DNA of 64,000 nucleotides, from contig CAIWHP010000218.1 of assembly GCA_903912445.1 (NCBI GenBank), positions 36,329-100,328 on the forward strand. Direction: 5' to 3'. Shown here piece after piece: positions 576-26,414 of the stretch (within the stretch, counting starts at the first letter, position 1; every line of letters begins with the position of its first letter). Source of the DNA: an uncultured Lentisphaerota bacterium (GTDB lineage: Bacteria > Verrucomicrobiota > Kiritimatiellia > CAIQIC01). The position numbers and the translations under genes were made by a program. The notes below the pieces were generated by a model. The model saw only the letters and a list, made by a program, of their open reading frames with translations. It was not told where the DNA came from and made no database searches.

Positions 576-645
576 GGCCGGATGCGGTTGGGCGCGCGAG
601 AAAATCAGTCGGATCAGACCTATCCGTCCTGTCCGGTTCCTTCGG

Positions 646-695
646 TTTTCCAAGCCTTGGAAAGAACGGCGTTTCACGTTCCAACCCTTGGAAAC
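646..695. repeat. two phased copies of the palindromic motif TTTCCAAG-N-CTTGGAAA, upstream of the GH2 gene
   Basis: ttttccaagccttggaaag (646-664) and ttccaacccttggaa (679-693); centre-to-centre spacing ~31 bp; same motif family recurs at 5 other loci in the window. Confidence 0.7.
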
Positions 696-744
696 CGCCG
701 GCCTGCGTGCTAGAAGAGCCGCGCACGCGACGAGGAGCAAACAC

Positions 745-3498: not shown

Positions 3499-3509
3499 GC
3501 AGTAGAAAC

Positions 3510-4277
3510 ATGAAATACCTGCTCGCCCCCCTCCTCCTGCTGCTGCTCGCCGGTTGCGCCACCGCGCCCAAGCCGGCATTGCCGGACAATTCCGCCGTCA
3601 TGCCGGTTTCGAAACTGGAACAGGACCACTATGACTGGTTCGGACGGCACGAGGAAATTTTGCGCGTCAAGGACACGGTGCAGCCCGAGGTGGTGTTCAT
3701 CGGCGACTCCATCACGCACCAGTGGGGCGGCACGCCCGCAGCCAAGCCCCATCCGTCACCCGGCGAGAAGGTGCTGAAGACCACGCTGGGAGGTTATCGG
3801 ACGCTGAACCTCGGCTTCGGCTGGGACCGCACGCAGAACGTCCTCTGGCGCATCGAGCACGGCGAACTGGACGGCCTGCAGCCCAAGGCGGTGGTCATCC
3901 ACATCGGCACCAACAACACCAGCCCCGGCCATGCCCGGCCGAACACCGCCGCTGAAATCGCGGAAGGGATCAGCGCGATCTGCGACCGCGTCCACAGCAA
4001 GGTGCCGCACGCCAAGATCATCATCATGGCCATCTTCCCGCGCGAGGCCCAGCCCGAGCATCCGCGCCGGCAAATGATCAACGCCACCAACCGCCTGCTC
4101 CCCGCGGTGGCCCGGGCCCAGCAGGCCGCGTTCGTGGACCTCACGCCGCTGATGCTCGCGCCCGATGGCCAGCTGCCGCGCGAGGTGGCGCGCGACCTCT
4201 GCCATCTGACCGAAAAAGGCTACCAGATCTGGGCCGACGCCTTGCTCCCGATCCTGGCCGGGAGCAAGACCCGCTGA
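3510..4277 (+). CDS. SGNH/GDSL hydrolase family lipoprotein (PAF-acetylhydrolase-like)
   Basis: ATG at 3510 (aa 119 of ORF 3156..4277); lipoprotein signal MKYLLAPLLLLLLAGC; GDS motif FIGDSITHQWGG; C-terminal catalytic-His region ...ARDLCHLTEKGYQIWAD. Stop is 12 bp after the GH2 stop, so probably co-transcribed. Confidence 0.8.
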   Translation: MKYLLAPLLLLLLAGCATAPKPALPDNSAVMPVSKLEQDHYDWFGRHEEILRVKDTVQPEVVFIGDSITHQWGGTPAAKPHPSPGEKVLKTTLGGYRTLNLGFGWDRTQNVLWRIEHGELDGLQPKAVVIHIGTNNTSPGHARPNTAAEIAEGISAICDRVHSKVPHAKIIIMAIFPREAQPEHPRRQMINATNRLLPAVARAQQAAFVDLTPLMLAPDGQLPREVARDLCHLTEKGYQIWADALLPILAGSKTR

Positions 4278-5085: not shown

Positions 5086-5565
5086 GTGATTAAAAAGAAT
5101 ACTGCTCGTGGGCGTCCGCCTAAGTTCAACGAGGCCTCCCGCCCTGTCACCGTAACCTTGCCAGAGCGTACGCTCCAACAACTGGCGGCTATTCATGGCG
5201 ACCGGGCGCGCGCCATCGTCAAGGCGGCGGCAACCACAACACGCATACATTCGAGGAAGGCTTCGCCTGTCGCGGTCGTGGAAGCCTTTCACGGGCAGGA
5301 GCTGATTGTGGTCGGACCGAGCCAGAGTCTTCGGCAAATCAAATGGTTGCGCTTGGCTGAGGTCGCCCCGTCACGTTTCTTGCTGGTCATCCCCTCCGGG
5401 ACCATGATTGAAACGCTGGAAGTCGCGGTCAGCGATCTCTTTGACCTCCTGCCGCCATCGGAAACCTACGAGCGCGGCTTGTTGGCGGAATTGCTACGCA
5501 TCTTGCGTTTACGTCGCCGCCAGAAGAATGTGACCAAGGCGGAGATCCTGCTGCTACAGCTTTGA
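5086..5565 (+). CDS. putative ribbon-helix-helix-like regulator, 159 aa, paralog 1
   Basis: GTG at 5086 (aa 94 of ORF 4807..5565). N-terminus GRPPKFNEASRPVTVTLPERTLQQLAAIHGDRARAIVKA resembles CopG/RHH. Paralog at 24117..24602 shares protein sequence with many synonymous third-position changes, so it is under coding constraint. Confidence 0.55.
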   Translation: MIKKNTARGRPPKFNEASRPVTVTLPERTLQQLAAIHGDRARAIVKAAATTTRIHSRKASPVAVVEAFHGQELIVVGPSQSLRQIKWLRLAEVAPSRFLLVIPSGTMIETLEVAVSDLFDLLPPSETYERGLLAELLRILRLRRRQKNVTKAEILLLQL

Positions 5566-5804: not shown

Positions 5805-6137
5805 ATGAATGAGAAGGCAGCCAGGCTTGGTAAACGCGGCAGCAACGCCCTGACGGTGGTGAACGGGGCTTTACTGCTTGCTGCTTTTGGGCCCTTCCAG
5901 CGGCTCCGCTTCCGTTCCGGCGATAGCCCTGCCGCCTTACCGTTGCAGAGCCCTCCGGTCTTCCACTCACGGCTGTCCAGGCACCCACTGCGCGGCGTCG
6001 TGCTGACGGCGATCTTGCGGGCGGTCTTGAGCGGTACAGCCTGGCTCCGACCGCTTTCGAGGCCCTTCGGCGGGCAGCTTCCCTGGCCGGGCGCCGGCAG
6101 GCTCCTGCTGCAGCGCGTGACGGTACTACCGAGGTGA
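5805..6137 (+). CDS. small (110 aa) membrane-associated hypothetical protein, paralog B
   Basis: ATG at 5805; MNEKAARLGKRGSNALTVVNGALLLAAF...LPLQSP...AWLRP; same length and motifs as 4536..4868; stop overlaps the start region of the GT-C gene. Confidence 0.5.
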   Translation: MNEKAARLGKRGSNALTVVNGALLLAAFGPFQRLRFRSGDSPAALPLQSPPVFHSRLSRHPLRGVVLTAILRAVLSGTAWLRPLSRPFGGQLPWPGAGRLLLQRVTVLPR

Positions 6138-6139
6138 GA

Positions 6140-8110
6140 ATGGTCAGCGCGTCACCATCTTATTCGGCGGACGCTGCGCCGTGTCCCCCCGGCCAAGCGC
6201 GCAGGCCCTCTTCACGCCCGACACAACCCTTGGCGCGAGGGCACGCCTGGCTGCTCTACGGCTTACTGCCGCTGCTCGCCTTCGCGGCGACAGGGTGGCT
6301 CTACCGCCATGTCTTCCACTGCGCGCCGATTACCACCGACGAGAACAGCTATATCTTTCAGGCTTACAACTTCCTCGCCGGCGTGATCGCCCGGCCCTGC
6401 CCGCCGTCGCCCGAAAGTTTCTTTCACGCCATGATCATTTGTGACGACCGTGTCGGCTGGCTTTCCCGCTATCCACCCGGCCACGCGCTTTGGTTGTTGC
6501 CCGGCTGCCTGCTGCATCAGCCGCACCTCATGGTGGCGCTGGCAGCCGCCCTGTCCGTGGGGCTCATGGCTCGCGTCGGCGCATTATTCGGGGGCCAGGT
6601 CGCTTGGCTCGCCGCACTTTTGCTGCTGCTCTCCCCTTTCTTTCTCTTCACGCATGGCACCTTGTTGGGCCACACCAGCGGACTGCTGGCCACGCTGCTC
6701 TTGCTGTATGGTTTCATGCGGTGGCAAGGGACGGGCACCGTTCTTTTCGCAGCGCTGGCCGGCCTGGGCTGGAGCTGGCTCTATCTGAATCGCACCTATA
6801 CGGCCGCACTGCTGGTCCCGCCGTTGGCCCTCTACAGCCTGATCACGCTCTTTCGCCAGCGGCACAACAAAACCGCATGGCTCGGCATGCTGCTGTTTGC
6901 CGGCACGGCCGCGACAGGTGTGGCGTTGGTTCTCTTCTACAACTATCTGGCCCTCGGTGATGCTTGGACCATGACCTATTCGTATTTCCGGCCTTCGGAG
7001 ACACTGGGGTTTGGCGTCAAACAAATTGATCATGCCCGTGTCGTGCATACGCTATCCACAGGCTTGCGCATGATGTGGGGCAACCTGCGCCTCTACGATC
7101 AGTGGCTGTTTGGCTTCACGGGCTCGCTCGTGGTGGCCGCGGCAGGGGCCCTTATCGGTTGGCGCAAGCAATGGAGTCCCTTGTTGTTGATGGCGCCGGT
7201 CATGGTCTGGGCCGGGTATGTCCTCTTTTGGTATCACGGCCCGCACGAAGTCGGCCCGGCCTATTATACGGAAACGTTGCCGTTCGTGGTTTTGGCGACC
7301 GCTTTGGGGTTGGCGCGCATACTCGACTTTTTGCGCGCAAGGCACTGGGCCTGGCAGTGCGGCTTGCTTGTGCTCTGCGGCGGATGGCTCACCAGTGATG
7401 CGCGTTTCCTCAGGCAGCAATCCGCCACGGTCAGCACCTTGTGCCAGCCGCTCGGGACCTTGCGCGAGTTTGTGCAGCAGGCGCCATCGAATTCCGTCAT
7501 TGTGACCACCGAGGCCACGCCCTTCACCAGCCGCCGCTATGGCCCTTTGGTCTTCAATCCACAGGGACTCGCGAGTCAGCCCCTGATCGTCCACGCCACA
7601 GGCGCTCAGGATGCCAGTGTGATCCCTAGGATGTTCCCCCACCACCAGGCCTTCACGCTGACCTCAACGGGCGGGCAACATCAACTGGTGCCGCTAATTC
7701 CGGCCGCTTTCAATCTTCCACTCTCCCTCGCAGCGCTGCGCCGCCATACCGGCCAGCGCCTCGGCGGGGACGGGCATCAGCCCGTGGTTCTCACGGCACA
7801 GCAAGCGCGAGACAAACCCGAGTTTCTCGCTTTTGGCCACACCGTGTTGCTGCCACCCGGACGCTTCGCTGCCGAGTTTGATTTTATCATCACCAATGCC
7901 AGCGCAAACGAGACGGTGCTGACCGTGGATATCGCCCGGACCGGCGGCCGTGAAAGCGTGGTGCGGCAAGCCTGCGCGGCCAACACCAGCGCCCCCCTTA
8001 TCGTGACGTTTGCGGTGACCCATTTCACCACGGTAGAACCGCGTGTGTTTTACCAAGGGAGAGGCGATGTCACCCTGCGCGGCATACGTCTGTATGAGCT
8101 TTCGCCGTAG
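6140..8110 (+). CDS. GT-C fold membrane glycosyltransferase (ArnT/PMT-like, GT39/GT83 type) with C-terminal soluble beta-sandwich-like domain
   Basis: ATG at 6140 three bp after upstream stop, preceded by gaggtg. ~11 predicted TM helices in the first 430 aa with loop motifs typical of polyprenyl-phosphate-sugar-dependent GT-C enzymes; ~230 aa C-terminal non-membrane domain. Confidence 0.7.
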   Translation: MVSASPSYSADAAPCPPGQARRPSSRPTQPLARGHAWLLYGLLPLLAFAATGWLYRHVFHCAPITTDENSYIFQAYNFLAGVIARPCPPSPESFFHAMIICDDRVGWLSRYPPGHALWLLPGCLLHQPHLMVALAAALSVGLMARVGALFGGQVAWLAALLLLLSPFFLFTHGTLLGHTSGLLATLLLLYGFMRWQGTGTVLFAALAGLGWSWLYLNRTYTAALLVPPLALYSLITLFRQRHNKTAWLGMLLFAGTAATGVALVLFYNYLALGDAWTMTYSYFRPSETLGFGVKQIDHARVVHTLSTGLRMMWGNLRLYDQWLFGFTGSLVVAAAGALIGWRKQWSPLLLMAPVMVWAGYVLFWYHGPHEVGPAYYTETLPFVVLATALGLARILDFLRARHWAWQCGLLVLCGGWLTSDARFLRQQSATVSTLCQPLGTLREFVQQAPSNSVIVTTEATPFTSRRYGPLVFNPQGLASQPLIVHATGAQDASVIPRMFPHHQAFTLTSTGGQHQLVPLIPAAFNLPLSLAALRRHTGQRLGGDGHQPVVLTAQQARDKPEFLAFGHTVLLPPGRFAAEFDFIITNASANETVLTVDIARTGGRESVVRQACAANTSAPLIVTFAVTHFTTVEPRVFYQGRGDVTLRGIRLYELSP

Positions 8111-8140: not shown

Positions 8141-8914
8141 GTGCTTTTCTTCTCCCAGCTTCAGCCTCCAACCCGGATGTCATACATGAACACACCCATG
8201 CAGCCCAGCCTCGAGGGACAGCCCGCACAGCGGGTGGACGTGGTCGTCCCCGTGCTGAACGAGCGGGAGATGCTCCCCCGTTTCCTCAGCCGTATTCAGG
8301 CCCTCGACTTGCCTCTAAACCTGATTTTCGTGGATAACGGTTCCACGGACGGGACCTTGGAGTTTCTGGCCTTGCAACAGGGCGCGAAGGCGGACATCCA
8401 GATCATTGCGCACGGGCGCAATATGGGCTACGGGCGCTCCTTGGCGGACGGGTTACGGGCCTCAACCGCCGCGCGGGTCATCATCATTGACGCCGACTGT
8501 GAATATCCTCCCGAGGCCCTTCCGGACCTATTGGCTGCGCTCGAGCTTTCCCCGATGGTGTATGCAAGCCGTTTCCGAGGCGCCAAGCGCATCGCCATGG
8601 CCCCCTTTCGCCGGTGGGGTAACCGCGGGCTGACAGGCTTTTTTAATTTGCTCTATGGTCAGCACCTTACCGACCTGTACACCGGCATGAAGGCGCTACG
8701 TCGAACCGCCTTCGAAGGTCTGACCTTTACCCGGAACGGTTTTGAACATGTGATGGAGTTGTCGGCCAAAGTGGCCCGGCGCGGGGTGCGGATCGGCGAG
8801 GTGCCGGTGGCCTATGCCCCACGCCAGACCGGCCGTTCCAAAATGCGGCATATCCCCGAATTCCTCAAGGCCGTGTACTGCCTGCTTTACTACCGGAGGA
8901 GCCGCCATGAATGA
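8141..8914 (+). CDS. GT2 family glycosyltransferase, polyprenyl-phosphate sugar synthase-like (DPM synthase / ArnC-like)
   Basis: QRVDVVVPVLNEREMLPRFLSRIQALDLPLNLIFVDNGSTDGT is a GT-A/GT2 N-terminal signature; ~245 aa, no TM, like DPM1/ArnC. True start uncertain (M at 8141, 8177, 8186 or 8198). Confidence 0.75.
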   Translation: MLFFSQLQPPTRMSYMNTPMQPSLEGQPAQRVDVVVPVLNEREMLPRFLSRIQALDLPLNLIFVDNGSTDGTLEFLALQQGAKADIQIIAHGRNMGYGRSLADGLRASTAARVIIIDADCEYPPEALPDLLAALELSPMVYASRFRGAKRIAMAPFRRWGNRGLTGFFNLLYGQHLTDLYTGMKALRRTAFEGLTFTRNGFEHVMELSAKVARRGVRIGEVPVAYAPRQTGRSKMRHIPEFLKAVYCLLYYRRSRHE

Positions 8915-10349
8915 ACGCGTCAGTTTGATTCCTGCCGCCGGTAAAGGTACCCGGGCTTACCCCTATACCAAGAACATCCCCAAAGGACTGCTCAAGATTG
9001 CCGGCAAACCGCTGCTGGAACATCTGGTGATATTGCAGAGGGACCAGTTGCGGATTCAGCACATCTATATGGTGGTGGGAACCACCGGGCAGCAGATCCG
9101 CGACTATTTCGGGGACGGGAGCCGCTGGGGCGTCCGAATTGATTATCTGCAAAACGATCGCGTCGATCTGGGCTTGGCCTATTCCGTCTACTTGGGCGCG
9201 GCGGTCATCCGGGAGCCGTTCCTCTTGATGCTCTCGGACGAATATTATCAGGACACGAACCTCGCCCTGCTGTCAGAGGTTACCCTGCAACAAGACGAAT
9301 TGGGCTGCTGCAGCTTAATCGAAACGCAGGACTGGGATCGCATCCGCCGAAACTACACGGTGACCTTGGAGGATGGTCGCGTCACCCGCCTGCTGGAAAA
9401 ACCCCGGGAACGTCAAGGCGACCTGCTGGGAACCGGGACGTTTCTGCTGTCCCCCAAGATTTTTGACTACCTCAAGCGGGCTTTCTCAGAGCCCTCTGCC
9501 CGGCCCGACTTTATCGGCATGGTGGACCAAGCCGTCCGCACCGGGGAGATCCTCCGCCCGCTGATGCTCACCGGCCAGTACCTCAACATCAACGACGTGG
9601 ACAGCCTGAACTGGGCCAATTTTTTAGGCCGCAGCCGCGATTTACCCAAGGCCAGCCTCAGTGTCATCGTCCAATCCTTTGGGATTGAGGAAGGGCTTTC
9701 CCGCGTCGTGGCGGAGTTCCACGCCTTGCCCCGCGTCACGGAAATCCTGGTGGTGGTGCCGGCCGGAGCTGTCCGTCCCGCATGGATCGATGGCCTTGAA
9801 AAAGCACGCTGGGTGGAGGCCCCGGCAGGGGTTAAGGAATACGGGGGCTTGATTGCCTACGGTCTTGATCAGGCCCGGGGAGAGATTCTTACGGTGGCAG
9901 AAGGAGCCTATTCCTTTTTCCCCGGAGATCTTTCCAAGTTGCTGGCCTATTTGGCCGACGCCGACCTGGTCTTGGGCACACGGACCACGCGCCAGTTGAT
10001 CCAGCAGGGCTCCCGCATGAACGGCGTGGTACGCTTGGCCCATATTTTTCTGGCTATACTGATCGAAATCCTCTGGCTCGACCACCGCATCCGTTTGACC
10101 GATGTGGGTTGTACTTTTCGCGCCATCTGGCGGCACAGCTACTTGGACATCCGGGACCGCTTGAAAAGCGCCGGCCCAGAATATGTCTTGGAAATGGATA
10201 TCGAGACGTTGCGGGCAAGGAAACGCTTGATCGAAGTCCCGGTCAGTTTCCTGCATACGAACGAAGCTCTGGCCGAACGGCATCAGCATGCAAGTGTGTT
10301 TTTCAGGCTGTTGTGGACGATTATCTCTAAACGCTTGGGGCGTGACTAG
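8907..10349 (+). CDS. bifunctional sugar-1-phosphate nucleotidyltransferase (N-term) / GT2 glycosyltransferase (C-term)
   Basis: ATG at 8907 (aa 32 of ORF 8814). N-terminus MNERVSLIPAAGKGTRAYPYTKNIPKGLLKIAGKPLLEH is an NTP-transferase (RmlA/GlmU-like) signature. C-terminal half SVIVQSFGIEEGL...VVVPAGA... is a GT2-like fold. Start overlaps upstream gene by 8 nt. Confidence 0.7.
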   Translation: MNERVSLIPAAGKGTRAYPYTKNIPKGLLKIAGKPLLEHLVILQRDQLRIQHIYMVVGTTGQQIRDYFGDGSRWGVRIDYLQNDRVDLGLAYSVYLGAAVIREPFLLMLSDEYYQDTNLALLSEVTLQQDELGCCSLIETQDWDRIRRNYTVTLEDGRVTRLLEKPRERQGDLLGTGTFLLSPKIFDYLKRAFSEPSARPDFIGMVDQAVRTGEILRPLMLTGQYLNINDVDSLNWANFLGRSRDLPKASLSVIVQSFGIEEGLSRVVAEFHALPRVTEILVVVPAGAVRPAWIDGLEKARWVEAPAGVKEYGGLIAYGLDQARGEILTVAEGAYSFFPGDLSKLLAYLADADLVLGTRTTRQLIQQGSRMNGVVRLAHIFLAILIEILWLDHRIRLTDVGCTFRAIWRHSYLDIRDRLKSAGPEYVLEMDIETLRARKRLIEVPVSFLHTNEALAERHQHASVFFRLLWTIISKRLGRD

Positions 10350-10376
10350 CCCCGACCTAGTTTGCCCGTGTATATC

Positions 10377-10742
10377 ATGAAAAATATTGGCAAGAAACAA
10401 GACGGGATGCGCAGGATGAATAAGCCCACAAGCGACAGGCGCGTTAAAGGCAGGTCAACTTTCGCAAGAAAGCCGGCCTCCAAAAGGCAAGGCGCGAACA
10501 CGTTTGCCCTTCTCTATAACCGGCTGAAAAAAAATATCGTGGCTGTTGAACACGACCGGAGGAATTTTGGCGACAAGGTTTTTATTCTCCGTTTTTGGCG
10601 CAAACTCGCGGTGTTATTAAAAGATGTTCAGCAGCTTCGTACGCTGGCGAAGACAGCCGACGAAAGAAAACAGATAAAGACGATGAGGAATTCTATCGAT
10701 CTTCGAATGACAGCTGCCCTCTTATCCATCACAGCTTTTTGA
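10377..10742 (+). CDS. hypothetical small basic protein in low-GC island
   Basis: ATG at aa 6 of TTG-initiated track ORF 10362; region 10360-10750 is markedly AT-richer than surroundings; no recognisable domain; could be non-coding. Confidence 0.3.
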   Translation: MKNIGKKQDGMRRMNKPTSDRRVKGRSTFARKPASKRQGANTFALLYNRLKKNIVAVEHDRRNFGDKVFILRFWRKLAVLLKDVQQLRTLAKTADERKQIKTMRNSIDLRMTAALLSITAF

Positions 10743-10930
10743 GGCCGGAGCGACAGGGCTGCATCCTTGCAGGCGCGCCCGCTCAACCGGGATGGCGTTG
10801 GACAATCACGACAAGGCAGGCGGCACAGGGCAGGAGCAGCACAAGCCCCCGCCGCCGCGACACTAGCCAGATGAAAACAGGCCCAGCATCACGCACCCGT
10901 CGAGGCGCGGGCTTTTCATGCGTATAAAAG

Positions 10931-11743
10931 TCAGGGTCGCTTGCGCAGGTAGGGTGCAGCCAACAGGCTGAACTCGGGAATGCCCCCGCCGCCCCACTGT
11001 ATACACAGGGCAGCCGAGCGGCTGTGCCGGGCATAATGTTCCACCCGCAGCGGATGCATCCCCGCGGTCAGCGGGACCTTCACCGTCCGCAGACTGTTGG
11101 TCCACGGCTGATCATGCCAGTTGTCGAGCACGCAGCGCTCATCGAGATACAGCCGCAGGCCCTCCTGGCTCTGGCAGGTGAAGCTGTACTCGGCGGTCTG
11201 CGGCGCCTGCAGCCAGCCGGTCCAGCGGGAGGAGAAATCGCCCTTGCCAAACCACCACGGCAGCGGGTGCTCATCCGGTTCGGCCAGCAAAGCCATCGCG
11301 TAGCTATACCAAGCGACCTCGGTAAGGTTGGCCTCCCGATAATAGGTGATCAACAGACCTTCAGGCTGTGACCACCGCCGGAACTCGCCGACGGCCATGG
11401 TGACGAACAGCGCTCCGGCAATGGCCAGCAGATAGGAGGCCGCCCGCCAGCGTGCCCGCCGGCGCAGCGCAGGCGGACAGCGGGCGTAGAGTGCGGCCGC
11501 CAGCTGCTCGGCATATCGGCGCAGCGCCCGCCCCTGTATGTCCAAGGCATCCGGCGTCACCGCGGCCACGTGGGCGGGGGGCGGCGCGAGTTGCAGGCTG
11601 GCGGCCACCTGCACCAACCGTGTGTGCGCCTGCGCCAGCGCGCTCTGCCCGGCGGCCAGTCCGGTCGTCGTCAGTGCGCGGGACAGGTCACGGGCCGCGC
11701 CGTGAATTTTTCCCCGCAAATCCCGATAGAGTTCTGCATCCAT
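10931..11743 (-). CDS. single-pass membrane protein with C-terminal PA14 domain
   Basis: ATG at 11743 (aa 31 of ORF ..11833). TM helix ASYLLAIAGALFVTMAV, then PA14-like domain (GWLQAPQTAEYSFTCQSQEGLRLYLDERCVLDNW ... WGGGGIPEFSLLAAPYLRKRP). Strongly similar to the C-terminal 190 aa of ORF 22088..24112. Confidence 0.7.
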   Translation of the reverse strand: MDAELYRDLRGKIHGAARDLSRALTTTGLAAGQSALAQAHTRLVQVAASLQLAPPPAHVAAVTPDALDIQGRALRRYAEQLAAALYARCPPALRRRARWRAASYLLAIAGALFVTMAVGEFRRWSQPEGLLITYYREANLTEVAWYSYAMALLAEPDEHPLPWWFGKGDFSSRWTGWLQAPQTAEYSFTCQSQEGLRLYLDERCVLDNWHDQPWTNSLRTVKVPLTAGMHPLRVEHYARHSRSAALCIQWGGGGIPEFSLLAAPYLRKRP

Positions 11744-11756
11744 GGTATCGGAGTGC

Positions 11757-12863
11757 CTATAAGAGTGAACGCAGCCAGGACCAGGCGTCCCAAGCATTCT
11801 GGCCCGGATGCACCACCTGCCCCAGCCATACATAGTAGGTGGGCGAAAACGAGGCGATGAGGGCGATGAGCATCAACACGCGCTCGAACTGCGCCCGCAG
11901 CCGCGGCCCCGCCTCGTCCGCCTTTTGCAGCGCGTGGACCAGGCCGTGCCACGCGGGGGCCCAGGCGAGCAGCGCAAACACGCGGGTGGTATCGAGACAG
12001 AAAAAAGTGATGCCGTAGAAGAGGGCCAGCAGGCCGAGCAGGCACCACGCATAACCGCGGTCGAGACGCAGCAGGATGGCCACGCTGCCGGCGAGCGCAA
12101 ACCAGCCCATATTCTGCAGGGAAAAGAGGGCCACCGGCAGGTGCTCCAGGTTGTACTTGATCCAATAGAGTAAATTGCGCTCACCGACAAATTCGGCGCG
12201 CGAAACCACCTCGATGCTGTTGATGTGCAGGAACACCCGGACGGCGAGCCAGCCGGCGAGGACGCCGAGCGTGGCCAGCGCCACATGGAGCCAGGTCACG
12301 CCGCTGTCGCGCGCCCGCCAGCGCAGCAGCCACAGGCCGGGCACGGCAAACATGACGATGGGATGGTTATAGGAGCCCAAGGCGGCGAGCAGGAACACCA
12401 CCCACCCCTGCCGGACGTACAGCATCAAGGCGAGCACCAGGAAGGTGATCGCGTCCGGCATCCCGATCCACGAGAGCAAGACCATGGTCAGCGGGCTGGC
12501 CAACAGGAGTGCCAGCAGGAGCAGGGCCCAGAGCGCCCCATAGCGCCGGCGGGCCGCGCGCACGAGGTAGAGAAAGCCGGCCAGGATGACGGAGAAACAC
12601 AGGAGACCAAAGGGTGCCGGCGCCTGCCAGCCGGTCAGATGCGCCAGCACGGGCAGCAGCGGAGATTCTTGGAAATAATTTTCGCGGTGGATGTCGGTAC
12701 GCTGCGCATAGGGATTCTTGGCCAGCTCGCGATAAAATTCCCGCGGCACCACGCCGAGACCACAGTAGAGGATGGTGGCCACCACCAGCAGCGCCAGCAC
12801 CAGGTAAAAATGCTGCCGCACACAGCGGCGCACCCACGCCTCAAGTTGATCAAAGATGGTCAT
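11757..12863 (-). CDS. polytopic integral membrane protein (9-10 TM), unknown family
   Basis: ATG at 12863 (aa 12 of ORF ..12896); hydrophobic throughout; stop 14 bp before the PA14 gene start, so the two are likely co-transcribed. Confidence 0.6.
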   Translation of the reverse strand: MTIFDQLEAWVRRCVRQHFYLVLALLVVATILYCGLGVVPREFYRELAKNPYAQRTDIHRENYFQESPLLPVLAHLTGWQAPAPFGLLCFSVILAGFLYLVRAARRRYGALWALLLLALLLASPLTMVLLSWIGMPDAITFLVLALMLYVRQGWVVFLLAALGSYNHPIVMFAVPGLWLLRWRARDSGVTWLHVALATLGVLAGWLAVRVFLHINSIEVVSRAEFVGERNLLYWIKYNLEHLPVALFSLQNMGWFALAGSVAILLRLDRGYAWCLLGLLALFYGITFFCLDTTRVFALLAWAPAWHGLVHALQKADEAGPRLRAQFERVLMLIALIASFSPTYYVWLGQVVHPGQNAWDAWSWLRSLL

Positions 12864-13135
12864 CGCCCGGTCACCAGCCGACACGCCCCGGCCCAACCAT
12901 GCGCCGCGGAGCGGGAAGCATACGACGCATGGAGTTAAGCAGGATGCGTACCGGGCGTCACGCGCTTAATTATGCCGTCCCGGATGCCTTATTACGGAGA
13001 AACCGGCGGCGCGTGGGCCGGCGGGCGGCCTGCCGGCGCCGAGGCGCGCCGCGGCCTGTCAGTTTCATGGGCAGGCTTTCCTATTGACAACGCAATTTAT
13101 TTATTTACAGTTGCCGCCCGTACTTGGATGACAAT

Positions 13136-13885
13136 ATGAAAAACTACATTAAAACTGCCGTGGTTATGTTGACCCTCATGTTGCAGGCCGGCGTCTGTGG
13201 TCGCGCGGCCGAACCGGCCGGCCAAAAGCCTGACTGGATCACGGGCCACTTGGAAATCGGCACCCGGACCACCTATTTCCAGCTTCAGGATCAGCATCGG
13301 GATTTCCTGGGTGGTGACCGGTTTTATGGCAGCATCAATGAACTCGATGTCCAGCAGATCTATCTGCCCCTGAAAGTATTCGTCGCCTATAAAGTTAACC
13401 CCTATTGGGGCGTTGAACTGACCGCGGAAAAATTGTCCGTTGAAACCTGGTCGCGTCCGAACCCGCAGGACGCCCCCCCCTGGACGGACGGGACGATCAA
13501 TCTCATGGGCCCCGTCTTCAGCGTGTTCGCCCGCTATCCCAATTCCACCCGGCTCACGCCCTATGCGGGAGTTGGCGCGGCCTATTTCTTTGCCGACTTC
13601 GATGCTGACCCGGCGTGGCATCACCCGGCGGATAAAAGGGAGTATGATCCGACTTTTTATCAGGACTTCAAACTGGATAATTCGCTCGCGTGGCTTGGTT
13701 ATGTCGGCCTGATGATCAACCTGAACGACAACTGGGCGCTTGATTTTATGGCCCGCTACATGGCCATGGATGTAGACGGCGTCACGCTTACCAAGCACGG
13801 TGGTAGTGACTACTATGAGAACGGAACTTTCACATTCCCCATGAAGAACATTTCCTATGGCGTGGGCCTCCGCTATATGTTTTGA
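13136..13885 (+). CDS. outer-membrane beta-barrel protein (OmpW/OmpA-like fold)
   Basis: ATG at 13136 with signal peptide MKNYIKTAVVMLTLMLQAGVCG; alternating hydrophobic pattern and C-terminal ...YGVGLRYMF typical of OM beta-barrels. Confidence 0.65.
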   Translation: MKNYIKTAVVMLTLMLQAGVCGRAAEPAGQKPDWITGHLEIGTRTTYFQLQDQHRDFLGGDRFYGSINELDVQQIYLPLKVFVAYKVNPYWGVELTAEKLSVETWSRPNPQDAPPWTDGTINLMGPVFSVFARYPNSTRLTPYAGVGAAYFFADFDADPAWHHPADKREYDPTFYQDFKLDNSLAWLGYVGLMINLNDNWALDFMARYMAMDVDGVTLTKHGGSDYYENGTFTFPMKNISYGVGLRYMF

Positions 13886-14046
13886 TCACCACCCCGCGCG
13901 CTGCACGGCGGCAGTTCCTCTTTATGTCGAACGTGGCCCATGCCTCCCAACGCTTGGAATTGCTGACCAGGTTCGCGGTCCCCGCTAGCACAAGGGCTGC
14001 AACGCCCACGCCTGTCATCAGCTCGCCCTAGCCGAAGCCGTCGCTC

Positions 14047-16002
14047 ATGAGCGCCACCGTTGCTGAGCCACTCGCCCCGGCCTCCGATTCTGCCCCGGAA
14101 AAGCATTGCTATAGATGGCTGCTGCTCGGAGTGGGCCTGTGCGCCAGCGTGCTCGCCTGGGCCTCCTTGAAGCGGCACTGGAACCTGGCTTCGGCCGAGG
14201 ATCTGGCGATGTTCGACCAGATGCTCTGGAGCGTGCGGCAAGGGCAGGGCCTGCTGTGTTCGGTCAGCGGCAATGGCAACCTTCAGTTTCTGCATCATTT
14301 TTTTGGCGAACATGTCTCGCCCATCCTCTATCTGCTGGCCTGGCCCGCTGCGCTGACGCAAGGCCCCGAGGCCTTGCTCGTCTTTCAAGCGCTGGTTTTC
14401 GCTTTGGCGGCCCTGCCACTTTATCGGTTGGTCTTGCTGCTGACGGCCTCCGGGCGCATCGCCCTCGGCGCAGCCGTGGGTTGGCTGTTCCAACCGGCCC
14501 TCTGGGGCGCGGTCCTATATGATTTCCACATGGAAGCCTTCGAGGCTTTGTTCCTCTTCAGCTTTGCCTTGGCGCTGTGGCGGAATCGTTGGACAGCGGT
14601 GCTCTGGGCCGTGCTCTACGCGAGTTGCAAGGAGGATGCGCCGCTCTACCTGGCGGCGGTCGCTGTGTTGCTCGGCTGGAAAGCCAACCGCTGGCGCATC
14701 GGCTTGGTTGTGGCCATCGGGGCGCTGCTCTATTTCCTGGCGGCCGTGCTGTGGATTGGGCCGGCCTGCTCGCCCTCGGGGCAACATCTGCTGATCGGCA
14801 GGATGCTCACCCCCAAGAACTGCGGCGGGCTGTGGGCCTGGTTGCAGGCCGTGCCGCTGCACCCCACCCGGTGGCTGGCGCTCACCGGGCACCTGCTCGC
14901 CTTGGGACTGCTGCCGGTGCTGGGCGGCCGGCTGCTCATTCCGGCGGCCATGGCAGTGGGCGTGATGTGGATTGCCCGCGGAGAAGCCCAGGCGCTGATC
15001 CTCATCCACTACCCCCTGACCGTCTACCCGTTGCTGGCCTTGGCGGCCGTGGCCGGGCTCGCGCGCATCGTTAACAGTGGCCCGCTGCGTCGGCATCCGG
15101 CCTGTCGCCGGCTGGCCCTGCCGGGCCTCTGCGGCGTCGTGCTCTTGGGCTGGGTGCTGGCGTGGGGCGGACAGCTCGAAAGCATCCGGTCCCTGGGGCT
15201 GGGCCGCGAGGACGGGGGGCTGGCCAGAAGTCGCGCCCTCACCGCCGTGGTGGCGCGCATCCCCGCAGAGCAGCCCGTGTTCGCCTTGCCGACCCTTGCG
15301 GCACATATGGCCCGCCGGCAAACGCTCAATTTGCTGGATGGCTTCCACGAGGCCGACTGGCTGGTCCTCCGGCTGGACGGCCAAGGCTATCCCTATGATC
15401 CGACGGCCTATCACGCCTGGCTGAATCGGCTGCTCGGCGCCAGTTCGCCCTATGGGGTCTACGCTATTGCCAGCGACCAGGTGGTGGTCTTGCGCCGCGG
15501 CCATTCCCGCGCGCTCAATGTAAAGGCCCAGTCGTATGATCGGTTCCTGGAGGCAGAAACACTCAACCACAAAATCGGCCATGGCGCCTTTGACTTCGCC
15601 GCGCGGACCGGCGTGGCCTGGGAGGCCAGTCGTTATGACCGCCAAGATTATATGCTGTTCGGTCCCTATCCCGACCTGGATTTTCCGCGGGGGCGCTATC
15701 TCGTCGGCTTTCGCATCAAAGCCGAAAAAATAAAGACGTCCAACCCGGTCACCCTGGAAGTGACCGGACAACACGGCCGCGTGTTACACGGCAAAATCAT
15801 TTTGGACCGGCCTACCCGTGGCTATCAGTGGCTGGACATGGAGGTGGACAGCACGGGCGGCAGCTTCGAATTCCGCTGCTGGAAGTCTGGTTACGGCAAC
15901 GTCCGGCTGGACGCGGTGCGCTGGCACCTGATGGACTCAAACCAAGCGCCCCATGCGCCGGGAGGCGGGGGCTGCCTGCCAGGCAACCCCGGCACCCTCT
16001 GA
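14047..16002 (+). CDS. DUF2079-family polytopic membrane protein (putative GT-C-like glycosyltransferase) with C-terminal beta-sandwich-like domain
   Basis: N-terminal membrane region ...HHFFGEHVSPILYLLAWP... matches the DUF2079 signature; ~10 TM; C-terminal ~150 aa soluble domain (FGPYPDLDFPRGRYLVGFRIKAEK...) resembles the C-termini of 6140, 16090 and 18052 products. Confidence 0.65.
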   Translation: MSATVAEPLAPASDSAPEKHCYRWLLLGVGLCASVLAWASLKRHWNLASAEDLAMFDQMLWSVRQGQGLLCSVSGNGNLQFLHHFFGEHVSPILYLLAWPAALTQGPEALLVFQALVFALAALPLYRLVLLLTASGRIALGAAVGWLFQPALWGAVLYDFHMEAFEALFLFSFALALWRNRWTAVLWAVLYASCKEDAPLYLAAVAVLLGWKANRWRIGLVVAIGALLYFLAAVLWIGPACSPSGQHLLIGRMLTPKNCGGLWAWLQAVPLHPTRWLALTGHLLALGLLPVLGGRLLIPAAMAVGVMWIARGEAQALILIHYPLTVYPLLALAAVAGLARIVNSGPLRRHPACRRLALPGLCGVVLLGWVLAWGGQLESIRSLGLGREDGGLARSRALTAVVARIPAEQPVFALPTLAAHMARRQTLNLLDGFHEADWLVLRLDGQGYPYDPTAYHAWLNRLLGASSPYGVYAIASDQVVVLRRGHSRALNVKAQSYDRFLEAETLNHKIGHGAFDFAARTGVAWEASRYDRQDYMLFGPYPDLDFPRGRYLVGFRIKAEKIKTSNPVTLEVTGQHGRVLHGKIILDRPTRGYQWLDMEVDSTGGSFEFRCWKSGYGNVRLDAVRWHLMDSNQAPHAPGGGGCLPGNPGTL

Positions 16003-16089
16003 TGGAGTCCCTCTCAGAGGGCGAAACGGGGAAGCCAGCCCTTGGGTTGCCAAGCGATGCGCTAATGGTGCATAATTTTGTCAGGGCCG

Positions 16090-17481
16090 ATGGCCAAGGA
16101 CGGGATTAGCGGCGATCAGGAGGTACTTGTGGATGTGAAGGACAACTTAGCGCAGCGGTGGCGCAGCAGGCTGTTTGCCGCCTGTTTCAGCCTGATCTCC
16201 GTGCTGCTGGCGATGTACGCGTCCGAGCTGCTGCTGCGCCGGATGGCCGCCAAGCAGGGCTGGGACAAATGGGTATACACGACCAACGAGCAAGGGAACC
16301 GCGGACCGGTGGCCGACGGACCCAAACGTCCGGGGATCAGCAGGATTCTGGTGCATGGCGACTCCATCACCTACGGGGTCGGCGTTAGCGATTACAGGGA
16401 GCTCTACCCCTTTCAACTCCTGGCCCGACTCAACAAGACTGGCGAGAAGTATGAAATGCACAGCAGCGGCGTGCCCGGGCGGGAATTGAACGGGCAGGCC
16501 CGCCTGCTGGAAGAAAGCGCCGCCAAGCTGAGCCCCGACCTGATCATCTACCAATGGTTTGTCAACGACGTTGAACTGACCCATGAGAACCGTCCGGAAA
16601 GCCGCTCCACGCTGTGGAGGCGGCTGCCCTGTCACGCCGACCTTAAACGCCGCTCCTACCTCTACTGCCTGTTAGATGAAAGGCTGGCCGGTTGGCTGCC
16701 CGCCTTCAATCGTTCCTATGAACAATACTTGCTGGAGGATTATGCCGAAAAAAGCCGGACCGGCTATTGGTATCCGGTCCGCTACGAGTTCCATCGGTGG
16801 GCCACGCGGGCGACCCTGACCGCCAAACGAAACATCCTGATGCTCTATCCGCTGCTCCCGTTTAAAGGTGAATATCCCCTGCGCTCGTTGCATCAGCGCA
16901 TGGCGGAGATGGCCGGCCGCAGCATTTTCTCCATGCCGGCTTACGAGATGCATATGAAAGACGGGGACAATGTCGAGGATAAAGACTCCACCTATGGCGT
17001 GACGCGCAAAGCCAGCGCCGGCCTGACCCAGACCAACTGCTTTCTCGTGCATGGCCCCTATCTGCCTCTGGGGCCGGGCAACTACGCGGCCACCTTCCGC
17101 CTGAAGGCCGACACGTTTCAGGCTGGTCCCGTGGCCAAGCTGGACGTGGTCTGCGACGAGACGGCCACGACCCTGGCCCAGACGGTTAAAGGCAGCGAGG
17201 ACTTTGCCGCCACCAACAGCTGGCAGGACTTCACCATACCCTTTTCCGTGTCGAAGGCTTGGATCGGCGACATTGAATTCCGTGTCACGTACTTGGGGAA
17301 TGGCAATCTGTCCGTTGATTCGATCCGGTTGCCCACGCAGTACAATGTCGAAGTGCTGGATTTAACGCCCCACCTCAAGGACATGGACACGTGGGCCAGC
17401 CCCACCGACGGCCATCCCAACGCCAAAACACACAAAGCAATGGCCGAGCTCCTTTATCGTCACATCTCGCGGGAGCCGTGA
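16090..17481 (+). CDS. membrane-anchored SGNH/GDSL hydrolase with C-terminal beta-sandwich-like domain
   Basis: ATG at 16090 (aa 5 of TTG ORF 16078); N-terminal TM helix; SGNH block I ILVHGDSITYGVG; C-terminal HGPYLPLGPGNYAATFRLKAD... similar to the module in neighbouring GT-C proteins. Confidence 0.7.
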   Translation: MAKDGISGDQEVLVDVKDNLAQRWRSRLFAACFSLISVLLAMYASELLLRRMAAKQGWDKWVYTTNEQGNRGPVADGPKRPGISRILVHGDSITYGVGVSDYRELYPFQLLARLNKTGEKYEMHSSGVPGRELNGQARLLEESAAKLSPDLIIYQWFVNDVELTHENRPESRSTLWRRLPCHADLKRRSYLYCLLDERLAGWLPAFNRSYEQYLLEDYAEKSRTGYWYPVRYEFHRWATRATLTAKRNILMLYPLLPFKGEYPLRSLHQRMAEMAGRSIFSMPAYEMHMKDGDNVEDKDSTYGVTRKASAGLTQTNCFLVHGPYLPLGPGNYAATFRLKADTFQAGPVAKLDVVCDETATTLAQTVKGSEDFAATNSWQDFTIPFSVSKAWIGDIEFRVTYLGNGNLSVDSIRLPTQYNVEVLDLTPHLKDMDTWASPTDGHPNAKTHKAMAELLYRHISREP

Positions 17482-17562
17482 CGCCCGCCTCCCTCCAAGG
17501 GGCAGGCAGGACACCCTGCGCTGGCGGAGGCGTGTATGAGCGGCGCCTGCAGGCCCGGTGTC

Positions 17563-17591
17563 TTGACGAAAGGATTTCAATATAGTAGTAA
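17563..17591 (+). promoter_or_regulatory. weak sigma70-like promoter candidate in AT-rich intergenic island upstream of DUF5989 gene
   Basis: TTGACG (17563-17568), 17-bp spacer, TAGTAA (17586-17591); prediction only. Confidence 0.2.
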
Positions 17592-17807
17592 AATGGCGTG
17601 TTAAAGCATCTGCGCCAACAGCAAAAACAACAGAAGGCTTTCGCCTGTTGAGCTGTAACCAGCTGCGGCGCAGGGCACCTGGGCGGGGCAGGCTCTTCCG
17701 GCTCCCAGAGGAGTTGGCGGCGGCCGGCGCGGTGGTGAGGGTGTGGTGCAGAAGCTGTTCGGGTCTTTTTCGGGCAAGTTAAAGCTGGAATTCGCGGGAG
17801 GCTGCAC

Positions 17808-17972
17808 ATGAGATTCTTGAGAAATTTGGGACGGCTGCTGAAGGAGTTCCTGGCTTTTGCCTGGCATAAAAAAGCCTGGTGGATCGTGCCCATGATCTTG
17901 GTGCTGCTGCTGCTGATGCTGTTGATTTTTACAGGTCAATCTGCGGCGCCCTTCATCTACACCTTGTTCTGA
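17808..17972 (+). CDS. DUF5989-like small membrane protein (54 aa); absent from the ORF track because it is <60 aa
   Basis: atg at 17808 to tga 17970-17972 encodes MRFLRNLGRLLKEFLAFAWHKKAWWIVPMILVLLLLMLLIFTGQSAAPFIYTLF; the K/R-rich N-terminus, single TM and APFIYTLF C-terminus match the DUF5989 pattern as I recall it. Confidence 0.5.
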   Translation: MRFLRNLGRLLKEFLAFAWHKKAWWIVPMILVLLLLMLLIFTGQSAAPFIYTLF

Positions 17973-18051
17973 GAGCGCTTGCTGCGTGGGTGGCGAGGAA
18001 GGCGCAAGGTGCAGGGACCAGCGCGGGCGAGGTGCGCCGGGCGCCTGAAGG

Positions 18052-21000
18052 ATGTTTCGCGTGATGGCTATGCCTACATTGAACCGCCTGCAAAAACTGG
18101 CGCTGCTGTTGATTGTCGCGCTCGGCTTCGGCCTGCGTTTTGGCGGGCTGGACCATGACCTGCACGAGGAAATCCAGTACCACCCCGACACGCCCAAGCA
18201 AGTGCGGGCGGTGCAGCGTTTTCTGGACGGACAATATTACGCCCACTTCGGGATCCTCGATTACGACGCCTACCCCTACCTCCATTCGCATATCGTGGAA
18301 TATATCAGCCGGGCGGGCTCGGCACTCCACGGGGGCATGCAGGCGCTGACCGGTGTGCCGGGGACGGAGTGGCGGCCGGATTACTATCAAATTTTTTGGC
18401 TGGCGTTGGGTTGGAATGCGCTGTTGTCCACGCTTTTGATCCTGCTGGTCTTCCAACTGGCGCGCGAGAACTGGGACCTGCGCGCGGCCTTCGCCGCCGC
18501 GTTCTTTCTTGCGGTCTCGCCGATGGATGTCATCGCCTGTCATTTTGCCGGCGCCGATACCACGGCCGGTTTTTTTGCCACCGTGACGGTCTTCTTTGCC
18601 TTGCGCATCTACCGCCTGGGGCGTATCCGGGACTATGCCTTGGCCGCGCTGTTTGCCGCCTGCGCTTTTTCCTCGAAATATCATGCGGGCATGGCCCTGC
18701 TGCCGGTGCTCGCGGCCCATGGTCTGCGCATGGGTTCGTGGCGCGCGCAGTGTACCCGCACGGCCGTGGGGCGGCTGGGCCTGCTGGGGCTGATCGGCCT
18801 CACGGCGCTGGTTCTGACCACGCCGGTTTTCTTGACGCACTTCACGGAGACGGTCCGCAATATCATTGGTTTCTTCAACCAGGTCACCAGTTTCCGTGGG
18901 GCCGATGAAACCATTCGCGCCAGTGGCTGGAGCACAAAGCTGGTCTTTGGCCTGCAGCACAACGTGCCGCTGCTCGTCCAGATTCTCGGGCCGCTGGCCT
19001 TTGTGGCCGCGCTGCTCGGCCTCAAGGAGGTGTTCCGGCGCCAGCCCGAACCGCGTGCCCTGATTCTGTATGTTCTGCCGCTCTGCTATTTTCTCGCTGG
19101 CGGCGGGCTCCGGCCGATGGCGCACCCCATCGTCCAAACGCTGACGACCCCGCTGGTCTTTGTGGCGGCGGGGTTGGTGTTCACGCGCCCCTGGCTCCGG
19201 TCCGTGCCGGAGCACCCGCTCCTGGCCGGCCTGCGCAAGGGCCTCATGGCGCTCGCGCTCGGGTTGTTGGCCCTGCACGCGGCCCGCGAGTCGTTCCTGT
19301 TCTGGCATCAGGACACCCGGCGGCTGGCTTTGGCTTGGACGGAGGAAAACGTTCCACCTGCCTGCGCCGTGCACACCGACAACTATTCGTTCTCCTCCGA
19401 TAAATTCGCGTCGCCAACCAACGCGACAGGCTGGTTTCAGGCGGTGGCCGCCCAGCCGCCGGCCGCACCCTATGGCCACCTGAAGAGCTTTTCGGTGGAA
19501 ACTGACGGGTTGCCGATTCATCGCAACATCCCTGTGCACCTCTTCCTACAGCCTTCCGCCTGGCTGCAACCGGGCTTCCAGCTGCCCATCGGCCAGCGCT
19601 CCGCCTCGGAAGACGGCAACCGCATCATCTGCGACAACGGGCCGGAATTCGTGCGGAGCGAAAAGCTGCTCAACCTGCAAGCGGCCGACAAGCCTGTGGT
19701 GCGCTGCCTGGTCAGTGCCACGCCGTTGCGTGAAGCATGGATTGGCGTGCAAAACGGCGCTGCGCCCAATTTCGTGGAAGTCCACTTTGGCGGCTCCTCA
19801 CGCCGCTCCAGCATGAAGCCCGGCGAGGTCAGCTGGTGGCGCATCCCCGCGCCTCGCGCCAGCTGGCCCATCGACCCCAACCATGCCTGGTACCGCCTGC
19901 GTGTCCAAGCCCACTACGGCCGCGCCCGCGTCTTGTTGGCGACACGGCCGGAGGAACTCGGCGTCTTCTTGTTCAACGCGGGCCGCTACGCTGACGCCTT
20001 GCCCTGTCTTTTGAAGACCACGGCCGCGCACCCAGCCCTGTTGGCCACCTTGGCGTTGATCTGCGCACAGCAGACCGGTCACGACCTGGCGCCGGCCACA
20101 CGCGCCCAACTAGAGCGACGTGCCCAGCCGCTGGCCGACATGCGCGACAGCGCCAGCTGCCGCCAGGTGGCCGGCATTGCTCCGGCCTATCTGGAGGCGC
20201 TCGATTTCATCAAGCTGGAGTGCGCCGGGTTTGTACACTCCCCCGGGTGCCGCCGGATCGACGACTTGGCGGCTGCGGGCCGGCTGGCACTTGAAAAGGT
20301 GCCTTTGACGGGGGCCGCAGCGACTAACTATCCGCCGTTTTCCATCTGCTCGCCGATGCTCCAACTCGACCCCGGCGTCTATACCCTGCAGCTGCGGGTC
20401 CGGGGCAGCGACCGGACCACCGCGCCACTCCGTTGGCGCATGGAAGCACAGGATATGTTTGGCGCCAGCCTCGCGGAGACCGACGTGGAACTGCCGCCGC
20501 TGGACAACCGTAATTACACCAACGTCACCGCCACCTTTCACATGCCGCTGGCGCCGCCCGAAGTCCGCCTGGTGTTCAAGCCGCAGACGTTGGACGGCGT
20601 GGTGCTCGACGAAGTGGCCATCAAGCCGGACGTGCTGGCAACCATCCGCTGGTTGCAGCAGACGCGACAGCAGGCCAGCCCGTTGCGCGGGGCGCTGCCA
20701 GCGCCAGCGTTGTTCCACCATAACGTGGATACGATTTTTCAGGGCGGTTTACGGTTGGAGCAAATAACGTGCGACCGGACGACGCTCCAACCCGGACAAG
20801 CGCTCCACGTTGGCGTCCAGTTCCGCCTGGAAGCACCCGGTTTGAACACCGCCGGCCTGGCCTTTTTTATTCACGTTGTGGATCCGACAGGGCAGATAGC
20901 GTTTCAGGGTGACTTTGGGCTGGCTGATCTGCTGCAGGTCTACGCACCACGCATTGCCGCACCGGCGCAAGCGTACAAGACCCTCGCGGTCCCGGCCACC

Positions 21001-21141: not shown

Positions 21142-21311
21142 TTGCCCATGGAGAGGAAACCGGCCACCCGCGTTTCCGATACCGGGAACAGCCCTCAACC
21201 CGCAGCAAGGCCGGGGACGAGCGGATGCTGCTCACAGGGCACACCCGGCGTGCTTTCGAGTTGCCGCAGGCAGGGAAGCGCCTATACTCACGCGCAGGAG
21301 ACCAAGACCCT

Positions 21312-25371: not shown

Positions 25372-25546
25372 ATGCCTGACTCCCGTGGTTGAAGGTTGCG
25401 CGGAGCATAAGAAGTCGCCGCCCGAGAAGCAAGCAGGCACCGCGCAAAAAAGAGCCGGAGCGGCAACCGCGCCCCAGAAAGCTTCCGGCAGGCCCCCGCG
25501 AGGAACTGCCTATTTGGCTGCGACACCTGCGGCGGGGGGCGCCGCC

Positions 25547-26296: not shown

Positions 26297-26414
26297 GGGA
26301 GAAGATGGTGAACGGTGGATGGTTGAGGGCGTCGGCAGTATAGCGCGGCTCCCCGTGGGAGCAACCACGATCATCTGCCCTGCACCCTGTCCCAGCCACC
26401 ATCCTCCATGTTTT

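Follow-up and report, generated by a model that had tools for sequence, protein, structure and literature searches.

Two GT-C-fold families accompanied by the same transmembrane PA14 module, in cis and in trans, in an uncultured Lentisphaerota bacterium

Background

A module consisting of a transmembrane (TM) helix and a PA14 domain is encoded twice in a stretch of 64,000 nucleotides from an uncultured Lentisphaerota bacterium (assembly GCA_903912445.1, contig CAIWHP010000218.1, positions 36,329 to 100,328 of the forward strand), hereafter the window. One copy belongs to a small gene (A) that follows a gene for a polytopic membrane protein (B), and the other is fused to a polytopic membrane domain in a single gene (C). 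The locus thus raises the question of what the polytopic partners are, whether B and A form a genuine pair, and what a PA14 domain may do next to them.

Results

The PA14 module in A and C

The following features carry the analysis.

10931..11743, minus strand: gene A, 270 aa, with a helical N-domain predicted to be cytoplasmic (aa 1 to ~99), a single TM helix and a PA14 domain
11378..11446, minus strand: TM helix of A (aa ~100-122), from hydropathy
10934..11362, minus strand: PA14 domain of A (aa ~128-270), Pfam PF07691, E 1e-13
11757..12863, minus strand: gene B, 368 aa, a compact polytopic GT-C-fold membrane protein without a soluble domain
22088..24112, minus strand: gene C, 674 aa, with a GT-C-fold domain, a basic linker predicted to be cytoplasmic, a TM helix and a PA14 domain
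22673..24112, minus strand: GT-C-fold domain of C (aa 1-480)
22523..22615, minus strand: extra TM helix of C (aa 500-530), predicted to take PA14 across the membrane and homologous to the TM helix of A
22091..22510, minus strand: PA14 domain of C (aa 535-674)

The three open reading frames lie on the minus strand at the positions given by the initial annotation, and exactly their three products appear in public collections, labelled 'hypothetical protein', on a contig of 130,920 bp. Regarding the start of A, orthologues of 269-270 aa favour the annotated start over an upstream ATG at 11833. The PA14 domains of A and C (PF07691) score 51.7 and 56.5 bits, respectively, at a Pfam cut-off of 24 (E 3.5e-15 for C), so that both exceed the gathering threshold; both also have the PA14 beta-barrel fold. 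Residues 94-270 of A align with residues 504-674 of C at 49% identity (E 2e-51), an alignment that takes in the segment next to the TM helix and ends in both proteins with LLAAPYLRKRP, which confirms the homology described at the outset between A and the C-terminal part of C. The N-terminal ~95 aa of A are kept among its orthologues, whereas C lacks an equivalent region and Pfam matches nothing there. NCBIfam likewise gives no match for any part of A or C.

As for orientation, hydropathy and flanking charge counts show the TM helix of A to be preceded by the strongly basic RRRARWR, with a less basic stretch following, and in A and C alike basic residues flank the predicted cytoplasmic end of the helix next to PA14. 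Given its basic N-flank and the positive-inside rule, A is predicted to be N-in/C-out, and the PA14 domain most likely faces the periplasm in both proteins. The hydropathy script, too crude for the topology of B, was used only for the helix of A and these charge counts. In the comparison of the PA14 domain of A with solved structures, the family profile matches the PA14 dyad of RsgI3 (6qe7) with E 7.5e-32, and the conserved D-N-W motif is aligned between them. In PA14 domains of the lectin type, the sugar is contacted by calcium-binding loops. The closest solved PA14 domains bind polysaccharide, namely pectin or xylan (PMC6852018).

The two copies of the module may also exchange sequence. In the A protein of a sister genome (P0044), the last ~95 aa show C-type residues and a one-residue indel common with C. 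Over this part P0044 is 68-85% identical to the C protein of its own genome (P0201), compared with 50-74% between A and C of the window, and in the nucleotide comparison the A gene of the sister matches the window's C at 75.7%, compared with 67.1% for the window's A. These values are consistent with a gene conversion in which C was the donor and A the recipient, for which they are suggestive and not proof; such conversion would in turn suggest that the PA14 domains of A and C are interchangeable in function.

B and C belong to two different GT-C-fold families

According to its structural model (pLDDT 87), B is a polytopic membrane protein, and both B and the N-terminal part of C have, at fold level, a polytopic core with the GT-C arrangement of helices. 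A polytopic partner thus stands beside PA14 in both cases, as had been proposed, with B next to A and the N-terminal part of C within the same chain. These partners are GT-C enzymes themselves, a point absent from the initial annotation; they belong to two different families, and their catalytic activity is predicted. Candidate catalytic residues are E42 of B, an invariant acidic residue directly after TM1 (helix 3-34) in an alignment of 21 members, and D57 of C, conserved in at least 90% of the sequences in a 20-member alignment and located where the loop helix 58-74 begins; both occupy the place of the catalytic residues of GT-C enzymes, in the first extracytoplasmic loop after TM1.

Profile libraries place neither family. 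B and the N-terminal half of C have no Pfam match at E <=1 and no NCBIfam match at E <=0.01, and no HMM of a named GT-C family (PMT_2, DUF2079, ArnT, STT3 and others) matches B or C above its cut-off. The B family profile has no match at E <=10 among PDB sequences, and ten further B-family members have no Pfam match.

The initial annotation had also supposed that B mirrors the N-terminal half of C, and here the alignments disagree. The best BLASTP match between the two has E 0.079 over 18 aa, i.e. no homology, and hhalign gives a probability of 0.5% for the 21-member B alignment against the 20-member C alignment. B as a detached copy of the N-terminal half of C was therefore rejected; the likeness of B and C exists only at fold level, both being GT-C.

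The ends of the two domains differ as well. The GT-C domain of C closes with helix 448-480, which is followed by a basic linker of low model confidence (WRRLRRRA...ADRRRTVRW), helix 500-530 and PA14, so that the domain itself probably ends in the cytoplasm. The C-terminus of B probably lies in the periplasm, judging from the B-family protein P0076; in P0076 and P0152 the B-type part continues, by way of two additional TM helices, into another kind of C-terminal extension (~110 aa in P0076), which looks beta-rich judging from its sequence. Since B would end in the periplasm and the GT-C domain of C in the cytoplasm, B plus A is not just a C-like gene split in two.

Distribution

Searched in full with the B profile by HMMER, a set of 1.84 billion representative proteins yields 482 clusters at E <=1e-3. 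Nearly all members are ~370 aa long and unfused, and a few have other extensions. Among the best 150 of the 482 B-family representatives there is no B-PA14 fusion, and the long members carry other, non-Pfam extensions. The TM-PA14 module was found in only 4 of 185,579 GTDB species genomes, all of them PVC-group MAGs, in a scan with narrow patterns that divergent GT-C/PA14 fusions elsewhere could escape. Other PA14 matches in GTDB genomes (L016-L023) were set aside as an unrelated architecture with at most two hydrophobic segments.

Gene order in relatives

The stop codon of B and the start of A are separated by 13 nt in the window and by 7 nt in L003, and in L001 the called genes overlap. B and A are neighbours in at least five lineages, in which the flanks vary (the window; L012; L013/L005; L003/L004; L001/L002). 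The pairing is therefore not due to chance, since it persists with different flanking genes. The initial annotation had treated the pairing as coincidental if homology between B and C was lacking and the architecture was absent elsewhere: homology is indeed lacking, at sequence level only, and the architecture, sought in other genomes as had been suggested, does recur.

Further features are needed to describe the arrangement.

24117..24602, minus strand: R161, 161 aa, with an RHH-like N-terminus and a stop codon 4 nt before the start of C
5089..5565, plus strand: R161 paralogue, 60% identity, heading an operon of genes for a 658-aa GT-C-like protein, a GT2 enzyme and a nucleotidyltransferase
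13137..22016, plus strand: block between C and B, encoding an OMP beta-barrel, a DUF2079 protein, a GDSL/SGNH enzyme, a 1029-aa PMT_2 GT-C protein and another GDSL/SGNH enzyme
12956..12969, minus strand: conserved motif TTAAGCGCGTGACG (TTAAGYGCGTGACG motif), ~95 nt upstream of B

R161, C, B and A form one same-strand cluster in L001/L014 (a 'Verrucomicrobia bacterium' MAG) and in L003 and L004 (JGI, Logan contigs). The flanks of the contiguous C-B-A cluster vary, with DnaJ in one genome and ribosomal L13/S9 in another. The 9.2-kb block on the opposite strand parts C from B only in the window and in the sister MAG L012 ('uncultured Lentisphaerae', whose B is 81% identical to that of the window) and is missing in L001, L003 and L004. 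By parsimony, the separation of C and B in the window is thus a secondary insertion, because C-B-A is contiguous in relatives, which the initial annotation had not noted.

Each pair also occurs on its own. B and A are found without C or R161 in L005/L013, at the syntenic site used in L003, and L015 (a Kiritimatiellaeota MAG) has the fused C by itself apart from two R161 genes. Overall, there are two conserved gene pairs, R161-C and B-A, which are often neighbours. PA14 is not always present in either context: L006 has a C-type gene without PA14 (P0016) alone with R161, further C-type enzymes without PA14 bring this group to P0016-P0021, and no PA14 gene lies next to the B homologues at 42% identity. 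Because such PA14-less C-type enzymes and B neighbourhoods exist, PA14 is dispensable for both fold families as such.

Regarding R161, the initial annotation had placed a paralogous RHH-like regulator gene before or near each copy of the module. This stands for C, which R161 precedes by 4 nt, but not for A: the 60%-identical paralogue is encoded on the opposite strand, 5.4 kb away from A, where it heads a different operon. R161 homologues precede C-type genes in L001, L003, L006 and L015, and no R161-type gene occurs within 10 kb in the genomes with B-A only (L005, L013). R161 itself has no match in Pfam, NCBIfam or PDB sequences, and its paralogue has none in Pfam.

The motif TTAAGCGCGTGACG stands ahead of B in L001 and L003 as well, and has its sole exact match within the window at the position listed above; it may serve as a promoter or operator of the B-A operon, for which it is a candidate.

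Glycan genes in the neighbourhood

The operon headed by the R161 paralogue includes two genes that bear on sugar supply.

8141..8914, plus strand: GT2 enzyme (Pfam GT2), polyprenyl-phosphate sugar synthase-like
8904..10349, plus strand: sugar-1-phosphate nucleotidylyltransferase with an RmlA/GalU-like N-terminal domain

The best PDB matches of the GT2 enzyme are the Dol-P-Man synthase 5mlz (E 1.6e-20) and then ArnC, and it is a candidate maker of a lipid-linked donor. Three further GT-C-type genes lie nearby, encoding the 658-aa, DUF2079 and PMT_2 proteins. The first of these, read as GT-C-like from its sequence, has a TTDENSY motif after the first helix and no match in NCBIfam or PDB sequences; in L009 its homologue, at 36% identity, is encoded immediately 5' of a B homologue. 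In the neighbouring GT-C proteins Pfam gives nothing reliable towards the C-terminus, and several other neighbours have no Pfam match. No flippase gene occurs among the window ORFs scanned, and no donor-synthesis genes lie close to B-A in L003 and L005. The window also encodes several SGNH/GDSL enzymes and a GH2 enzyme. As a whole, this appears to be a variable region for envelope glycans that depends on periplasmic glycosylation with lipid-linked donors. Such glycosylation, and GT-C enzymes of the periplasm that combine lipid-linked donors with a beta-rich C-terminal domain, are established (PMC11127046).

Discussion

A proposed PA14 lectin for two putative transferases

The acceptor-recognition role that had been suggested for PA14 next to GT-C enzymes is plausible. 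In the reading that we consider fairly probable, B and C are two periplasm-facing GT-C transferases that depend on lipid-linked sugar, each with a PA14 lectin holding the acceptor glycan. At the outer face of the inner membrane, B and residues 1-480 of C would transfer a sugar to a glycan of the cell envelope, with a polyprenyl-phosphate-linked donor as its source. In C, helix and PA14 are fused to the enzyme, and the lectin would act in cis; for B, the co-transcribed A would supply a bitopic lectin subunit, i.e. a lectin in trans within a putative B-A complex. PA14 would bind the polysaccharide that serves as acceptor, or the product as it grows, and offer it to the active site. In other GT-C enzymes, acceptor presentation is done by the C-terminal periplasmic domain.

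In favour of this reading are the conserved acidic residues, the linkage of B and A, the other C-terminal fusions in the B family, the charges around the PA14-proximal helices, the apparent sequence exchange between A and C, the nearby sugar-supply and GT-C-type genes, and the polysaccharide ligands of the closest solved PA14 domains. Against it are the C-type enzymes and B homologues that do without PA14, the different ends of B and of the GT-C domain of C, the lack of donor-synthesis genes close to B-A in L003 and L005, and the lack of a flippase gene among the window ORFs scanned. The conserved ~95-aa cytoplasmic domain of A also has no role in this lectin-subunit model. A might be a new kind of bacterial GT-C subunit, a bitopic PA14 lectin that docks in the membrane on a minimal GT-C enzyme and that, through its N-domain, also signals to the cytoplasm, perhaps to the R161 regulators, what state the periplasmic glycan is in; we consider this variant unlikely, and if true, the dual role of A would couple glycan sensing and glycan synthesis in one complex.

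The same domain, together with the similarity of PA14 to RsgI, is what speaks for A as an RsgI-type transmembrane polysaccharide sensor, with an N-domain that holds or releases a regulator, perhaps R161, and with B as a mere neighbouring enzyme. This reading, in which the periplasmic PA14 domain of A would detect an external or envelope glycan and the regulator would control the glycan genes, is improbable. According to Pfam (E <=1), A contains only PA14 and GLEYA matches and no RsgI_N or other anti-sigma domain, and no sigma-factor family turns up in the window ORFs scanned or in the genes called around the locus in L001, L003 and L005. Moreover, R161 pairs with C and not with A, with none within 10 kb where only B-A is found, A always comes after B (7-13 nt apart or overlapping), and pure sensing leaves unexplained why in C this TM-PA14 module forms one chain with a GT-C enzyme. 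Equally improbable is that B, the membrane domain of C or both are GT-C-fold proteins other than lipid-sugar transferases, such as PIG-U/GAB1-like scaffolds or glycan polymerases or ligases; PA14 would then measure or hold a polymer, e.g. for chain-length control. Far less probable still is that A is a decaying partial duplicate of the 3' end of C, placed beside B by accident and making the pairing meaningless. Homology of A only to the C-terminal ~180 aa of C and the adjacency of C, B and A in relatives are what a local duplication would leave, but A is intact, has a constant length of 269-293 aa with 42 invariant columns across sequences of 38-64% identity, owns a conserved N-terminal domain, and stays beside B where C is missing within ~10 kb on either side (L005, L013). 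Decay was rejected on these grounds, as A is conserved and persists without C.

Relation to known systems

A polytopic GT-C core with an extracytoplasmic binding domain is well known. AftD and EmbA/B/C (both with CBMs), PglB/AglB/STT3 and the GT136 pentofuranosyltransferase ORF12 likewise combine a GT-C core with a C-terminal extracytoplasmic binding domain. In contrast to these, the predicted outside domain here is PA14, it is reached by an extra hairpin (basic cytoplasmic linker plus TM helix), and B and C match no Pfam or NCBIfam GT-C family. As for the two-gene form, GPI mannosyltransferase I (PIG-M/PIG-X; yeast Gpi14/Pbn1) is a compact GT-C enzyme with a separate single-pass partner. B plus A recalls it by analogy only: the outside domain of A is PA14 and not PIG-X-like, the B-A complex is putative, and the system is bacterial.

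The anti-sigma-I factors RsgI3 and RsgI4 of cellulolytic clostridia, which contain the closest solved PA14 domains, have in common with A a bitopic layout with PA14 outside, as predicted for A. However, A and C have a single PA14 domain and not a dyad, no RsgI_N and no sigI partner, and they are linked to GT-C enzymes both genetically and physically. In comparison with three-component periplasmic glycosylation (GT2, flippase and GT-C, of Gtr and Arn type; PMC11127046), the window has GT-C enzymes, a GT2 enzyme similar to DPM synthase and ArnC, and a nucleotidyltransferase. It differs in that the GT2 gene belongs to another operon and has no counterpart near B-A in L003 and L005, the window ORFs scanned include no flippase, and a lectin subunit would be extra.

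In the library searched, no paper was found linking GT-C enzymes with PA14 domains, and the only co-occurrences of the terms concerned Pseudomonas strain PA14 or were incidental. New here are two unclassified sequence families, PA14 as the accessory domain, the extra hairpin, and the cis and trans versions in one cluster.

Implications

Practical relevance is limited, as none of this is from cultured organisms and the family has a very narrow distribution. If the favoured reading is correct, current profile libraries miss two GT-C families, and this would be the first case found of PA14 as the acceptor-side domain of a GT-C enzyme. About five GT-C-type genes and SGNH/GDSL enzymes would then stand together in a single variable region for envelope glycans, in a PVC lineage of which little is known. 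The cluster would also be a natural experiment, with the same lectin module used in cis for one enzyme and in trans for another. Because both uses coexist, the role of an accessory binding domain in GT-C enzymes would be directly testable by swapping, deleting or fusing it.

Gene content around the C, B and A genes

The gene for C, a GT-C-fold protein with a TM and PA14 C-terminus, is separated from that for B, a compact GT-C-fold protein, by a 9.2-kb block only in the window and the sister MAG. The block looks like an inserted cassette of additional envelope-glycan genes, and G+C falls to 0.59 within it, near 16-18 kb of the window. The block and the genes at either side of the region are as follows.

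13137..22016 (+), 9.2-kb block: OMP beta-barrel, DUF2079, GDSL, 1029-aa PMT_2 protein, GDSL
24799..25440 (-), GYF_2 + DUF5362 membrane protein, upstream of R161
25547..26617 (-), ThiF-family enzyme, upstream of R161
454..3498 (+), GH2-family glycosidase with exo-glucosaminidase/mannosidase-like Ig domains, at the region's edge
3156..4277 (+), SGNH/GDSL protein, at the region's edge
6134..8110 (+), 658-aa protein

The GYF_2 + DUF5362 and ThiF-family genes probably have no connection with the glycan genes. As for the GH2 and SGNH/GDSL pair, it is also found in the sister MAG, downstream of A (TM + PA14), whereas the operon of the 658-aa gene, a GT2 and a nucleotidyltransferase is missing there, and thus this operon represents variable content.

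Possible PA14 exchange and fused relatives

The sister A protein (P0044, gene at 10001..10807 of locus L012) was compared with sister C (P0201) and with window 22091..22430. Its last ~95 aa have C-type PA14 residues and an indel in common with C, and the corresponding DNA is 75.7% identical to window C, compared with 67.1% for window A. This C-terminal stretch of P0044 looks to have been converted to C-type PA14 sequence.

Among the B-family GT-C proteins are some that carry fused non-Pfam extensions, C-terminal in P0076 (544 aa) and P0152 (543 aa), and N-terminal, of ~300 aa, in P0083, P0098, and P0101 (~640 aa). Judged from sequence, the extensions of P0076 and P0152 look beta-rich; in P0076 two extra TM helices precede the extension.

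For the 658-aa protein, searches of Pfam, NCBIfam, and PDB returned no match. It carries the GT-C-like motif TTDENSY past TM1, and its C-terminal part likewise has a beta-rich look, again as judged from sequence. A 36%-identical homologue (L009 4052..5998) lies immediately 5' of a B homologue, and this pair adjoins a UbiA-family gene and a GT2.

Upstream motifs and the R161 family

The motif TTAAGYGCGTGACG (window 12956..12969, -) is kept ~95 nt upstream of B across 3 divergent genomes, namely the window and relatives L001 and L003 (C-B spacers at 9754..10000 in both). Near-matches with 1-2 mismatches at window 4442, 5686, and 6109 (+) fall around two genes, R161's paralogue and that of the 658-aa protein, and TTAAGYGCGTGACG could serve as a shared promoter or operator. 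The relatives' C-B spacer also holds two copies of an inverted repeat, TTTTTCCAAGGnTTGGAAAA (L001 9754..9800; L003 ~9825..9870), of which none was seen in the window spacers flanking B and C.

Members of the 161-aa R161 family are located as follows.

Window 24117..24602 (-)
Window 5089..5565 (+), paralogue
L001 6617..7102 and 7234..7719
L006 ~2773..3286
L015 3355..3828 and 10612..11085
L010 4162..4644 (-)

The family has an RHH-like N-terminus, RPITVTLPERILQQL, and gave zero matches in Pfam and PDB searches. Its genes adjoin 3 distinct GT-C families, being placed ahead of C, ahead of the 658-aa GT-C-like gene, and divergently from a 42%-identical B homologue. In this lineage, the R161 family may serve the GT-C genes specifically, as their regulator or partner.
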